A stretch of 64,000 nucleotides of DNA from a bacterium (GCA_965213685.1 CBDBZY010000031.1:32001-96000); one strand, 5' to 3'; counted from the stretch's first letter, positions 12,085 to 25,865 are shown. Translations and numbers: made by a program. Notes: generated from the letters alone by a model not told the origin.

Positions 12085-12189
12085 CACACGTCCCCAGGCC
12101 TCGTTTGGGTTTCTGGATTTTTGGATTCTCACTCCCGCCACCGCCGCCAAGCCGCCTCCGGCCGGCGGGGCCGCAAGGGGAGAGGACGC

Positions 12190-12579
12190 ATGGATGACGC
12201 CGACGCCCAAAGGCTGATAGAAAAAATCGTGGACGACCGCGGCTGGGTGCTGCCCGAGCAGGAGTTCTACATCCGCAAGGACCCGGAATACCACGCGCGG
12301 CAAAGCGCACTCTACAACCACGTGATCAAGCGCGAGGGCGCACTCTCCGAGAAGATGCGCGAGCTCATCGTCATCACCGCCCTTTGCGTGCGCCTGCCGG
12401 GCACCGAGGTGGAGGTCTACGTCAAAAACCACATGCGCCGGGCACTGGAGCTGGGAGCGACGGAGGATGAGATATTCGAGGCCGTGCAATGCCTGATATT
12501 CCCCGCCGGCGGCCCCTCCCTGATGATGGGGATCAAGTGCCTGCGCGCCGTCATGGCGGAGCGCGGGAGCACCGGCTGA
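12190..12579 (+). CDS. carboxymuconolactone decarboxylase (CMD) family protein
   Basis: GALSEKMRELIVITAL...HMRRALELGATEDEIFEA pattern; GAGG RBS. Confidence 0.8.
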   Translation: MDDADAQRLIEKIVDDRGWVLPEQEFYIRKDPEYHARQSALYNHVIKREGALSEKMRELIVITALCVRLPGTEVEVYVKNHMRRALELGATEDEIFEAVQCLIFPAGGPSLMMGIKCLRAVMAERGSTG

Positions 12580-12657: not shown

Positions 12658-13395
12658 ATGGACAGGGGAATCTGGGCGACCTGGTACGACCTGCCGAAAG
12701 AGGGCGAGGCGGAATACAACGACTGGCTGCACAACGCGCACATCAAGGACGCACTCAAACGCCCGGGCTACATGTGGGCGGCCCATTACGAACTCATCGA
12801 CAGGGAGTCGCCCCACTCCAAGCGAAAGGCCCACCTCGCATACACGGACGACGCCTCGATTCCGGGCGGTACGGAGTTTCTCCTCCTCTTCGGGGCCGCA
12901 ACGCCCGAGGCGTTTCTGAATCCCAGCCCCGCCCAGCTCCTGGAGGCGCACTCCGGCGAGACGCGCGCGATGCTCGCCAAAAGAATCGGCGCGCGCACCT
13001 GCATCCTCACGGAGGTGGACCGGGTGAACGGCCCCGACGCCGCGACGCGCGCCATCGGCGGGGTGCCGGCGCCGGTGCTCCAGATGGGCACCTTCAACTG
13101 CTTCACGCCCGAGGACGATTTCGACCTGAGCGCCTGGTACGCGCAAGATCGCCTGCCCGCGATGAAATACATGCCCGGCTGCGTGGGCGCGCGCAAGCTG
13201 GTCTCCGCCGCCGGGTGGGCGAAGCACAGCATCTTCTACGAGTTCTCCTCCCTGGAGAAGGTGCTCTCCCACTTCCCGCGGGCGGACAAGCTCATCGCCG
13301 GCGAGAACGACTGGTCCTACCGCGTCTGCCAGCGCCTGCTCCACGCGCCCGGCTCGCCCACGCGCGGCAGGCGCATCTGGCCGCCGGCGGAATGA
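12658..13395 (+). CDS. hypothetical protein with two EthD/DUF4286-like alpha+beta barrel repeats
   Basis: EYNDWLHNAHI...RPGYMWAAHY repeated as DLSAWYAQDRL...MPGCVGARKL; strong GGAGGAG RBS. Confidence 0.65.
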   Translation: MDRGIWATWYDLPKEGEAEYNDWLHNAHIKDALKRPGYMWAAHYELIDRESPHSKRKAHLAYTDDASIPGGTEFLLLFGAATPEAFLNPSPAQLLEAHSGETRAMLAKRIGARTCILTEVDRVNGPDAATRAIGGVPAPVLQMGTFNCFTPEDDFDLSAWYAQDRLPAMKYMPGCVGARKLVSAAGWAKHSIFYEFSSLEKVLSHFPRADKLIAGENDWSYRVCQRLLHAPGSPTRGRRIWPPAE

Positions 13396-13402
13396 GGGGA
13401 GA

Positions 13403-14074
13403 ATGCGGATGCGCTACATGAAGCCCATCCCGGTCGAGGAAGCGCAAGGAGAGGCCGCCAGGCTCTTCGGGGGCGTGGAGAAGATGCTCGGCCGGGTGGC
13501 GAACTCCTTCGCCGTCATGGCTTACCAGCCCTACGTCGCCAAGGTGATTCTGCCGCTCACCGTCACGCTCATGCGCGAGGGGCTCGGCACGGTGCTGCCC
13601 ACCAAAATCAAGGAGATGGCCGTCATCAAGACGAGCCACCTGAACGGGTGCGAATACTGACTCGGGCACAACACGGCGCTCGGTCGGGACGCCGGGGTCA
13701 CGGAGCAGGAGGTGCTCGAAATCTGCTCGGACGCCTATATGGACTCCCATACGATGAGCGCGCGGGAGAAAGCCGCCGTCCTCTGGGCGGAGCACGTGAC
13801 GAAAAACACCGCCAGGACGCGCGACGACGTATTCGGGGAGGTCCGACGCCATTTCGACGATCGCGAATTCGTGGAGCTCACCATGGTCATCACCTACTTC
13901 AACATGCGCAACCGCTTTCAGGACGCCCTGCGCATTCCGCTGGACGCCCCGAAAACGATCGCGGGCATCACCGCCGGGCGCAGGCAGGACCCGAAAGATC
14001 TCAAGAATTTTCTCGAAAACATGGTGGCGGAGTGGCCCGAGCGCTTTCCCGCGCCAGAGGAGGGCGACGCCTAG
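13403..14074 (+). CDS. AhpD/CMD-family selenoprotein (C-E-Y-U motif; Sec at TGA 13658-13660), 223 aa
   Basis: ORFs 13403-13660 and 13712-14074 share a frame and are separated only by TGA; read-through gives NGCEY-U-LGH, the AhpD CxxC motif followed by His; SECIS-like hairpin follows. Confidence 0.88.
13658..13700 (+). promoter_or_regulatory. bacterial SECIS-like stem-loop
   Basis: upper stem CGGCG/CGCCG plus CUC/GGG with bulged A; apical GGUC loop 13682-13685, 21 nt after UGA; UGACUC can pair with GGGUCA 13695-13700. Confidence 0.72.
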
Positions 14075-21651: not shown

Positions 21652-23056
21652 TCAGACCAGATAGGGCAGGTCCGGGCGCTCGCCTTTCAGTATCCGCTCC
21701 AGCGTCAGTATCTGAATTTTGGGGAAAGACCCGGAGAGCAGCGACATCGTGGGCGGGAGTGTAAAAACGCCGCTTCCCCTTGCAAATTTCATCATGGCGC
21801 CAGTCGGTTCGTTTCTTGTGATAAACACGCCCACCGGATTTGCGTCATTCAACAATCCCTTCAACGACCGGACGTGCTCTACGTTCACGCGCCCGCTTTT
21901 GACAGAGCAAATGGCGACATTATCGCCTCTCAGGAGAATGCGCCCGTCAATTCCGCCTTAACCTTTCAGCCGCCGCCATTGTCGTTCCGCAGCCGCAGAA
22001 CGGATCAAGCACGAGCCCGCCGGGCGGGCATGACGCGCGAATGATTTTTTCCAGCAGTTTCACGGGCTTTTGTGTGGGATATCCGAGATATTCCTTGTTA
22101 TGCGTGCTGTAGTTCGTGAACCCGGTAGGCTCCAAAATGAGATTTTGCGGGGGATTTCCCTTGTCCGCCTTCGCATAGCGCTTCAATCCCGGCCATTTGC
22201 CTTTTCTCGGATGATGGATCAACCCGGCCTTATCGAGAGCATCCAGCCTTTCATGGATGCCTGCGATGTCCAAATAGCCGGGGATGAACTCGCGAGCGAT
22301 ATATTCCGCGTAATCACCCGTTTTCGGCACAGACCAACCTCTTCCCATGGCATGAACGTCATAATGCTTCCAGGGCGTGGTGCTCGGGCTGCCTTTCGCC
22401 CCCCCCCCCCCCCCCCCCGGGCCCGTCAAATCAGCGGACCGGTACCGCCCGTGTTTGTCTTGAGAAGGATACGCCCGCCGCAATTGCTCCTCCGTTTTGG
22501 GAACCGCTATGGCCCAGCCGTTCCAATAAGCGTCCTTCCCGTTACGATAAAACAAGATGCTGTCGAGTATGCGGCCAAATCGATTCGGATTGTTATGGGA
22601 TGTAGCGCGTTTCCAGGCGATATCGTTTGTGAAATTCTCCGCCCCGAATACTGCATCCATGACGACTTTGAGATAATGGCTGGCCGTATCATCGCAATGG
22701 AGATAGAGAGAGCCGGTCGGCTTCAATATGCGGCGCATCTCCACCAACCTGACGGCCATATTCACCAGATAGGCGCATATCTCCACTTTGCCCAATGCGC
22801 TCAACAGCGCGTTCAATATGCTCCGCGCACCGAAATGCTTCATCTCTCGCAAATGATCGTCGCATTCAGGCGTCCAGGACCACGTATCGTCAAAAGCCAG
22901 TACCTGGCCCTGATCATCGGGATAGATGATGTTGTATGCGCGCTTGGAATTGAACGGGGGGTCGAGGTAAATTAAATCGAATTGCCCGTCTTCCATCTTT
23001 CGCATGATCGGAAGATTGTCGCCATAATAGAGCTTTCTGGTGCCTACCTCACGCAT
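21652..23056 (-). pseudogene. beta-class N6/N4 DNA methyltransferase fused to a C-terminal restriction-endonuclease-like domain, broken by an internal deletion/frameshift near 21950
   Basis: GDNL, IYLDPPF, YPTQKP, DPFCGCGTT, then stop at 21947; another frame (21652-21954) reads GIDGRI...SVKSG...GVFIT...PKIQILT; visibly lower GC than flanks. Confidence 0.75.
22399..22418 (-). repeat. G20 homopolymer (coding strand) inside the methyltransferase gene
   Basis: 20 consecutive C on + strand, read in frame as P-G6-A. Confidence 0.85.
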
Positions 23057-23146
23057 TCGGTCCTTGCCTTCCGTTCGCCCACGCCGTCGGTTCGGTGCGG
23101 GCCATATCGTTTTTTCTCGCCGCCGGACCGAATGAGGAAGCCCGCA

Positions 23147-25865
23147 TCACTCCCCCTCCTCCCTCTTCAAAAGCTGTCGGAGCACATACTGCAGGATGCC
23201 GCCGTGCTGGTAGTAGGCCACCTCGTTGGGCGTGTCGATGCGGACGATGGCGTCGAATGCGACGGGTTCGCCGCCGCCGCTCCCCTCCGGTGCGGCGGTG
23301 ACCCGCACCTTCCTGGCCTCGCCCTGTGCCAGGCCGTCGATGTCGAACACCTCCCGGCCCGTGAGCCCCAGGCTCCCGGCGGTGTCGCCCGGCTGGAACT
23401 GAAGCGGTAGCACGCCCATGCCGACCAGGTTCGAGCGGTGGATGCGCTCGAAGCTCTCGGCGATGACCGCCTTGATTCCCAGCAGGCTCGACCCCTTGGC
23501 GGCCCAGTCGCGCGAGGAGCCCGTGCCGTATTCCTTGCCGCCCAGAACGACGAGGGGGACGCCCGCCTCCCGATACTCCATCGCCGCATCGTAAATGGGC
23601 ATGACCCTGTTCGTCGGGAAATGGGTGGTGAAGCCGCCCTCGGTGCCCGGGGCCACCCGGTTCCTCAGCCGCACGTTGGAGAACGTGCCGCGCATCATCA
23701 CCTCATGGTTCCCGCGCCGGGAGCCGTAGCTGTTGAAATCATTGGGCAGAACGTCGTTCATCACCAGAAACTGGCCGCCCGGGCTGTCGCGCTTGATGGC
23801 ACCGGCCGGCGAGATGTGATCCGTCGTCACCGAATCGCCCAGAAGCGCCAGGCAGCGCGCCCCCCGGATGTCCTCAACGGGCGCGGGCACCGGCTGCATC
23901 CCCTCAAAATAGGGCGCCTTCCGGATGTAGGTGGACATGTCGTCCCACGCGAAGAGGCTGCCCTCCGGCGTCGGGATGCCCTGCCAGCGCAGGTCGCCCC
24001 GGAAAACATCGCCATAGCTCTTCTCGAACATGTCCGCCTTCACGTGGTTCATGACGGTATCCTGGAGCTCGCGCCGGGTGGGCCAGATATCCCGGAGGTA
24101 GACGGGATTGCCGTCCGCATCCTCGCCCAGTGCCTCCGTCGCGATGTCCAGGTCCATCCGGCCGGCGATGGCGTAGGCGACCACCAGGGGCGGGGAGGCC
24201 AGAAAGTTCATGCGCACCTCGGCGTGCACGCGGCCCTCGAAATTCCGGTTGCCCGAGAGCACCGAGCAGGCGACGAGGTCGCCCTCGGCCACCCGCCTTC
24301 GAGATGTGCGCGGGCAGGGGGCCGGAGTTTCCGATGCACGTGGTGCAGCCATATCCCACGTTGTGAAAGCCCAGTCGCTCGAGATAGGGGATGAGTCCCG
24401 CACTCCGCAGGTACTCCGTCACCACCATGGAGCCCGGCGCCAGCGACGTCTTCACCCAGGGCTTCACCTGCAGCCCCCGCTCCGCCGCCTTCTTCGCCAC
24501 CAGGCCCGCGCCCAGCATCACGGACGGGTTCGACGTGTTGGTGCAGCTCGTGATGGCGGCGATGACGACGGCGCCATGCGTCATCTCGTAGGTTCTGGCG
24601 CCCTCTCGCACCGTGACCGCAGCGGCGGGCGCCACGGCCGTCGCGCCGTCCGCGCCTCCCAGCTCGCCCAGCATTTTGTCGAGCTCCCGCTCGAAGGCGG
24701 CCTTGGCGTCGGTCAACGCGATGCGATCCTGCGGGCGCTTGGGGCCGGAGATGCTCGGAACGACGTCCCCCAGGTCGAGCTCCAGCGTGTCGGTATAGGT
24801 CGCCTCGGGGGAATCCGCCTCCCGGAACATGCCCTGCGCCCTGGCGTAGGCCTCCACGAGCGCGATTCGCTCCGCCGGCCTGCCCGTGAGTTGCATATAT
24901 TTCAGCGTTTCATCGTCGATGGGGAAGATGCCGCAGGTGGCGCCGTACTCGGGCGCCATGTTGGCGATCGTCGCGCGATCGGCCAGGGGCAGGTGGTCCA
25001 GGCCCGGGCCGTAGAACTCCACGAACTTGCCGACCACGCCCTTCTCCCGGAGCATCTGGACGACCGCCAGGACGAGGTCCGTGGCCGTGGCGCCCTCGAT
25101 CAGAACCCCGGAGAGCCGAAAGCCGATCACGTCCGGGATGAGCATCGAGTACGGCTGGCCCAGCATGGCGGCCTCGGCCTCGATTCCGCCGACGCCCCAG
25201 CCCAGCACGCCCATGCCGTTGATCATCGTGGTGTGGGAGTCCGTGCCCACGACGGTGTCGGGGAAGGCGCGCGTGACGCCCCCCCTCTCGTCCGTCCCCA
25301 CCACCGGGGAGAGGAACTCCAGGTTCACCTGGTGGACGATGCCGGTATCCGGCGGCACCGCCCGAAAGTTGCGAAACGCGCCCTGTGCCCAGCGGAGAAA
25401 GGCGTAGCGCTCGGTATTCCTGTCGTATTCCAGCTGCGCGTTGTTCTCCAGGGCCGTCCTCGTGCCGAACTCATCCACCTGAACGGAATGATCGATGACC
25501 AGGTCCACAGGCTGCAGGGGGTTGATGAGGTCCGGGTCGCCGCCCAGCGCCTTCATGGCGTCGCGCATGGCGGCGAGGTCCACCACGACGGGAACGCCCG
25601 TAAAATCCTGCAGCAGAACGCGGCTCGGCATGAAGCCGATCTCTTTGGCCGGGTTGTTCTTCGCATCCCAGGAGGCGAGCGCCTCGACGTCGGCGGGGCG
25701 CACGGAGCGCCCGTCCTCGTTTCGCAGGAGATTCTCCAGCAAAACCTTCATGGCGAAGGGGAGCCTGTCGACGTCGCCCTTGCCTTCCAGGGCGCGAATC
25801 CGGTACATCTCATGGGTTTTCCCGCCCACCTCGAGGGAGGAGCGGGCGCCAAAGGTGTTGTTCAT
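23147..25865 (-). CDS. acnA: aconitate hydratase A (apparent +1 G frameshift at 24292-24294)
   Basis: [38 protein letters not shown]; second frame [28 protein letters not shown]. Confidence 0.95.

Follow-up and report, generated by a model that had tools for sequence, protein, structure and literature searches.

AhpD-like selenoproteins with a CxxU motif were described from the Sargasso Sea as 27 sequences assigned to COG2128 and provided with predicted SECIS elements, a stem-loop right after the UGA with a G in its small apical loop being the criterion used for the latter (PMC1088965). The GOS data subsequently yielded a family “AhpD-like 1”, with 299 selenocysteine (Sec) forms and 902 Cys homologues, and a second one, “AhpD-like 2”, assigned to pfam02627 (PMC2398784). 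A 2026 review lists AhpD-like proteins with TIGR01926, PF02627, NF041238 and NF041047 (PMC13188914). According to its published description, BSepDB devotes a family page to AhpD-like proteins and counts 48-54 selenoprotein genes in UBA8248 “Nitrospinota” MAGs, which places these among the richest bacteria (PMC13326102). As to Cys-containing relatives, Glu36, Cys48, Tyr50, Cys51 and His55 of PA0269 have been described as proton-relay and redox residues (PMC3141380).

The gene reported here belongs to a lineage already known for the use of Sec and to a family whose use of Sec has been in print since 2005; since the selenoprotein family has been known for that long, our result is mainly an annotation fix. 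It adds one more well-supported case in a lineage (UBA8248, labelled Nitrospinota) listed among the most selenoprotein-rich. The first-pass annotation of this DNA had stated that AhpD-like CxxU selenoproteins are known from environmental data, which the marine metagenome studies of 2005 and 2008 bear out. As regards signals for Sec insertion, the SECIS of E. coli fdhF has a GGUC apical loop and a bulged U.

The window, i.e. the whole stretch of DNA that was analysed, comprises 64,000 nucleotides of a bacterial assembly (GCA_965213685.1, CBDBZY010000031.1:32001-96000). On its plus strand, ORFs of 85 aa (13403-13660) and 120 aa (13712-14074) have a common frame, and before the TAG at 14072-14074 the frame opened at 13403 has a single stop, the TGA at 13658-13660 (codon 86 of that ORF); frame translation agrees in this respect with the first-pass annotation, in which the two ORFs were parted by that TGA alone. 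Read-through from 13403 gives 223 residues with the segment NGCEY-U-LGHNTALG (C83-E-Y-U86). The start had been placed at 13403 and was corrected to a position two codons downstream, as the only codon of the 13403 ORF that is a start codon (ATG or GTG) in 20 of 20 orthologues is codon 3, ATG 13409. Because no other codon is a start throughout the orthologues and GGGGAG precedes it, we take the product to be 221 residues long, with Cys81 and Sec84 (Table 1). The TGC of the motif aligns to Cys48 of PA0269; the TGA falls on Cys51 of the same protein and, in 99 database homologues, on the second Cys of a CxxC motif. Very probably, 13409-14074 makes up a single intact gene, encoding an AhpD-like thiol/selenol oxidoreductase of the CMD family, with UGA read as Sec; conservation, covariation of a downstream hairpin and the presence of the Sec machinery all point to Sec insertion at this codon.

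Table 1. Features of the predicted AhpD-like selenoprotein gene, in positions counted from the first letter of the window
Feature	Position	Strand	Remarks
RBS GGGGAG	13396..13401	+	7 nt 5' of ATG 13409; G-rich stretch in the same place in 20 orthologues
CDS, predicted AhpD-like selenoprotein	13409..14074	+	221 codons, TAG stop 14072-14074
TGC, first Cys of C-x-x-U	13649..13651	+	Codon 83 of the 13403 ORF; product residue 81
TGA, predicted to be read as selenocysteine	13658..13660	+	Codon 86 of the 13403 ORF; product residue 84
Bacterial SECIS hairpin (predicted)	13674..13694	+	Fold, covariation (7 of 8 pairs tested), restriction to TGA forms
Hairpin arms	13674-13681 with 13686-13688 and 13690-13694	+	8 pairs, bulged A 13689
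Apical loop GGUC	13682..13685	+	Starts 21 nt after the TGA

Profile searches with the read-through protein returned, both above threshold, Pfam PF02627 (CMD) with 44.5 bits (cut-off 23) and NCBIfam TIGR00778 (AhpD core) with 32.7 bits (cut-off 27.8). The match to TIGR01926, “peroxidase-related enzyme”, was sub-threshold (58.5 vs 81.8 bits) and covered profile positions 4-174 of 178; judged by its sequence, the protein is a relative of TIGR01926 and, by the NCBI threshold, not a member. The models for selenoproteins likewise gave full-length matches below threshold, namely NF053654, YciW-related (seleno)protein, 68 against a cut-off of 310, and the further (seleno)protein models NF041238 (29.6/175), NF041047 (17.2/110) and NF041537 (15.7/510). 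Since no selenoprotein-aware NCBIfam model reaches its cut-off, automatic pipelines will keep splitting the gene.

An AlphaFold2 model based on 96 aligned homologues was all-helical (pLDDT 96.7, pTM 0.92), with helices 67-81 and 84-96 making up the two-helix active-site motif and with two further helices, from about 180 to 223, which are absent from solved relatives; the C-terminal extension of about 40 residues carries a conserved W-P (W211, P212). The best Foldseek match in the PDB was the debrominase Bmp8 (6ohi; E 3.4e-6, TM 0.78 by target length), with Mlr4105 (3c1l), Atu0492 (2gmy) and PA0269 as further matches, and the full-length matches listed had TM values of 0.75-0.84 by target length; for AhpD of D. 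radiodurans (6k40), TM was 0.70 by query and 0.83 by target. The high model confidence and the AhpD-like nature of the best structural matches argue for the earlier suggestion that read-through would give a complete AhpD-like fold. In sequence comparison, PA0269 (2ijc) was matched with E 1.2e-16, and with 3.3e-33 when the family profile was used. Glu71, Cys83, Tyr85 and U86 (223-residue numbering) align to Glu36, Cys48, Tyr50 and Cys51 of PA0269; the column of its His55 is occupied by Asn90, which is directly preceded by the conserved His (H89).

It might be argued that two separate small proteins are made, the ribosome stopping at the UGA and starting anew at GTG 13712, as this GTG does open the 120-aa ORF and databases list C-terminal pieces of such kind. 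This has, in our estimate, hardly any probability, for the stretch from the TGA to 13712 is conserved as protein (HNTALGRDAG) and lies within the active-site helix, and neither piece alone would be a complete AhpD fold.

The state of the family in public collections was assessed with 269 database homologues, among which 157 matches span the motif. The motif column reads CxxC in 99 of the latter, SxxC in 14 and CxxW in eight, the rest being various degenerate forms, mostly second domains of fused proteins; CxxW is the outcome of a gene caller reading TGA as Trp. In some fused two-domain database proteins (e.g. P0002, P0122) the second domain has AxxS or SxxC. Furthermore, 135 of the 269 proteins begin after the TGA column 86 and three end exactly at column 85, in line with the prediction that standard annotation would render such genes as fragments. 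The value of the present finding is therefore mainly that of annotation rescue, as the gene and most of its relatives stand as UGA-cut fragments in public collections. The named database relatives are labelled as MAGs of Nitrospinota, Nitrospinaceae or Tectomicrobia, and more distant ones as Rhodospirillaceae and SAR324.

A six-frame search of 61 genomes (the source genome and 60 relatives) gave matches in 47, among them each of the 36 genomes that belong to the family of the source and each of the 22 that belong to its genus. An in-frame TGA was present in 147 of the best 150 of 476 six-frame matches; among the other three, two were without TGA and one had TAG only. At the level of aligned loci, 19 of 20 orthologues have TGA at column 86, and the remaining one (L042) has the same letters in an alignment that loses the frame for about 35 codons. 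With 30 paralogues added to these 20 orthologues, the 50 gene copies comprise 47 with TGA, two with Cys codons and the one out of frame, which, together with the CxxC forms among the database proteins, accords with the expectation that homologues would have Cys or TGA in this column. The source genome itself has at least eight genes with TGA at the CxxU column (L024, L044-L049 and L051).

Both gene halves are under purifying selection with the TGA unchanged, as follows from median dN/dS values of 0.12 before and 0.20 after the TGA in comparison with 17 gap-free orthologues (dS 0.27-0.73). Some copies are damaged or mis-assembled: L040 (G001) has a second in-frame TGA at the column of Arg177, L042 (G006) a frame break of about 35 codons around the Sec codon, and the paralogue L051 (source genome, contig 38) is split over two frames. 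A reading of the gene as a pseudogene, in which a nonsense mutation has struck the active-site Cys codon and an 85-residue stub or nothing is made, could invoke these damaged relatives and the fact that under table 11 the TGA is a stop. We regard it as highly improbable, since TGA stands in the same column in so many copies from many genomes, the sequence 3' of the TGA has a median dN/dS of 0.20 at a dS of about 0.5, and the TGA is followed by a covarying hairpin.

The hairpin had been reported in the first-pass annotation as a GGUC-loop structure 21 nt 3' of the TGA, and we found it at that place, covarying and only with TGA forms. Fold alone proves nothing here, because the DNA is rich in G+C and z is near chance: 13669-13699 folded alone has -12.2 kcal/mol and z = -1.2, with 28 of 200 shuffles folding as well, and the 63-nt fold has z = -1.7; the support comes from comparison. 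Covariation was assessed on 46 distinct 60-nt stretches from the TGA onward (alignment A2), counting the bulged structure, i.e. columns 18-24 with 29-31 and 33-36, or seven of the eight pairs. Pairing was retained in 86.3% of 322 cells, as against 24.2-47.5% with the 3' partners slid by 1-3 columns. In the shuffle control, which overstates the effect because of kinship among the sequences, none of 500 shuffles attained the observed value in four of five measures, and six did so in the fifth, further pair types; the slid control is free of that weakness. Changes on both sides occurred in five of the seven pairs. As the pair that closes the loop, 25 sequences have U-A and 21 have C-G, none being unpaired there; this pair ties the synonymous choice of Leu codon (CTT/CTC) to the Gln or Arg codon after Gly.

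When all retrieved loci were used, 101 distinct stretches were available, among them 90 TGA forms and 10 Cys-codon forms, which make a clean control: the hairpin travels with the UGA. The loop begins with GG in 90/90 TGA forms vs 1/10 Cys-codon forms and is GGTC in 80/90 vs 0/10; all three apical pairs are kept in 85/90 vs 0/10, and the mean paired fraction, in the better register, is 0.92 vs 0.46. Moreover, among 18 close orthologues the third codon position varies in 2 of 6 hairpin codons vs 143 of 200 codons elsewhere. Applied to the 46 stretches, RNAalifold retained the three apical pairs only, since two registers occur in the lower stem. The register without bulge (8 continuous pairs) was rejected as the general structure, as it pairs in 64.9% and gives 72.3% when slid by +1. 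An outer stem was likewise discarded: the 63-nt minimum-energy fold pairs the UGA with GGGUCA (13695-13700), which varies and, as checked by eye, without compensation. A permissive Rfam scan of 13560-13800 returned no SECIS family, its four matches having E above 3, i.e. being due to chance.

The first-pass annotation had further presumed selABCD elsewhere in the genome. Indeed, selA (564 bits) and selB (370 bits) are adjacent on contig 5 of the source genome, both above cut-off, and a tRNA-Sec scored 78.6 bits and was called SeC, with anticodon tca, by ARAGORN. A Sec-type selD (GGU-GSK) was found 56 kb from the gene on the same contig (L010:900-2020, contig 31, outside the window), out of frame in the assembly, where it falls into three frames. 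Compared with the selD of a relative, these breaks are single inserted letters; public-run contigs spanning selD (X3, X4, X6) omit the extra letters, in at least 12 places, and X3 and X4 have no further difference from the assembly over the selD stretch. Because the public contigs omit exactly those letters, the frame breaks are consensus errors of the assembly and not decay, with the qualification that the spanning contigs may share the assembly's own sample. The seven public runs listed include none recorded as RNA. Across the genomes, selD was above cut-off in 24 of 26 (the source counted, its match being a fragment only), the matches of the relatives being full-length with one TGA, and selA, selB and tRNA-Sec were present in all five closed genomes of the genus examined. 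It should be noted that local insertion errors advise caution over other apparent frameshifts in this assembly, which has 7.97 Mb in 71 contigs, about twice the 2.9-4.6 Mb of 22 same-genus genomes, with contamination given as only 3.7%.

The extra letters in selD, at least 12 and absent from the public contigs, could raise the suspicion that the TGA is an assembly or sequencing error for TGC or TGT. The chance of this is in our view minute: the selD errors are insertions and not substitutions, the gene aligns gap-free to 17 orthologues, and independent assemblies show the same TGA in 90 distinct homologous stretches. Slightly more credit, albeit still very little, may be given to a reading of UGA without Sec, with the codon either reassigned to Trp or Gly throughout the genome or decoded by near-cognate insertion of Cys or Trp, to which the eight CxxW database homologues and the choice of a TGA=Trp code by some gene callers could be taken to point. 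Against it, the upstream gene ends at TGA 13393-13395, for which some orthologues have TAA instead, so that TGA is otherwise an ordinary stop; the genome has the full Sec machinery; and TGA is restricted to the column of the redox Cys, where it is accompanied by a hairpin missing from Cys forms.

Upstream of the selenoprotein gene, a 245-aa ORF (12658-13395, plus strand) ends 13 nt before its start. Searches with this ORF gave no family above cut-off and a weak match to DUF4286 (E 0.013). As a candidate partner of the selenoprotein, it has homologues that adjoin AhpD-like Sec genes in five out-of-genus loci (L098, L102, L103, L119, L134), and the source genome has four copies, only one of them next to an AhpD-like Sec gene. 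Two genes upstream, a CMD-family gene (12121-12579, plus strand; PF02627, 42.5 bits) is without CxxC or TGA, and a CMD gene also lies directly 5' of more distant orthologues (L088-L092, L094). The other neighbours are two hot-dog dehydratase-like genes and an ADP-forming acyl-CoA synthetase, and a 3-hydroxyisobutyrate-dehydrogenase-like gene and two tRNA genes are likewise found upstream. Gene order kept within the genus says little, since the relatives are close. Neither a peroxiredoxin nor an adjacent ahpC was seen in the neighbouring stretch examined. Tandem AhpD-like paralogues occur in the genome G035, with a Sec form followed by an SxxC form in L067:1-1598 and the order Sec, SxxC, Sec in L070:1-2286; the SxxC members of these arrays are without the GGUC hairpin.

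A motif screen of the window for further selenoprotein genes yielded 59 candidate TGAs, mostly in Arg/Pro-rich non-coding frames. Four of the 59 were run against Pfam. The candidate at 21950-24418 (minus strand) was dismissed as two genes, the end of an aconitase with a TGA stop and then an in-frame DNA methylase (N6_N4_Mtase); the three others were also rejected, one being located before a cyclophilin-like gene and two without any family.

By analogy with established bacterial Sec decoding, the best-supported route would be that the hairpin forms 13 nt past the UGA during translation and is bound by SelB with GTP and Sec-tRNA(Sec), which would deliver selenocysteine to the UGA, after which the ribosome would continue to the TAG at 14072. 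In the folded protein, Cys81 and Sec84 would be placed where the second of the two helices of the conserved AhpD motif begins, near the Glu/Tyr/His relay residues, and this redox pair may cycle between the selenol/thiol and the selenenyl-sulfide states. Most likely, on grounds of homology, the Cys-Sec pair would, like that of AhpD, serve to reduce a peroxiredoxin or a hydroperoxide. The second Cys of M. tuberculosis AhpD is presumably the attacking residue, which would fit Sec at that position.

The subfamily has multiplied: at least eight Sec-type copies with TGA at the CxxU column are present in the source genome, and the genomes of the genus have 7-17 matches each, nearly all with TGA among the matches listed. 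The copies may have diverged, some of them into Sec-dependent reductive dehalogenases, an idea prompted by the closest solved structure, that of Bmp8, which we take to be a thiol-dependent debrominase of tetrabromopyrrole. As a joint reading of multiplication, divergence and such an activity, we consider this improbable. If true, these enzymes would be a bacterial counterpart of deiodinases, useful where brominated metabolites abound.

In comparison with known systems, the gene agrees with the marine AhpD-like selenoproteins in its CMD/AhpD fold, in having a predicted Sec in place of the second Cys of CxxC, in a SECIS hairpin that directly follows the UGA and has a G in its small apical loop, and in the existence of many Cys homologues; that family is common in marine bacteria. 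In contrast to that family, with which it was compared by description, the present subfamily stays below the TIGR01926 cut-off and has its C-terminal extension of about 40 residues, uncovered by solved relatives (145-197 residues). With PA0269 and M. tuberculosis AhpD it shares the two-helix CxxC motif, in which Glu, Tyr and both redox positions align, whereas here Sec replaces the second Cys; furthermore, the relay His is at +3 (CxxUxxH) and not at +4 as in PA0269, which has 145 residues vs the 221 found here. Bmp8 (6ohi, 6ohj) gives a full-length sequence match, its CxxCxxH being aligned to CxxUxxH with the His also at +3. However, it has only 22% identity (Foldseek), is no closer than several uncharacterised “peroxidase-related” proteins and uses Cys, and nothing here points to halogenated substrates. 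The SECIS, finally, resembles that of E. coli fdhF in being a hairpin close behind the UGA, in its GGUC loop and in its bulged stem base, and differs from it in its eight pairs with a bulged A on the 3' arm, in a lower stem that shifts register among paralogues, and in that no Rfam model matched it.
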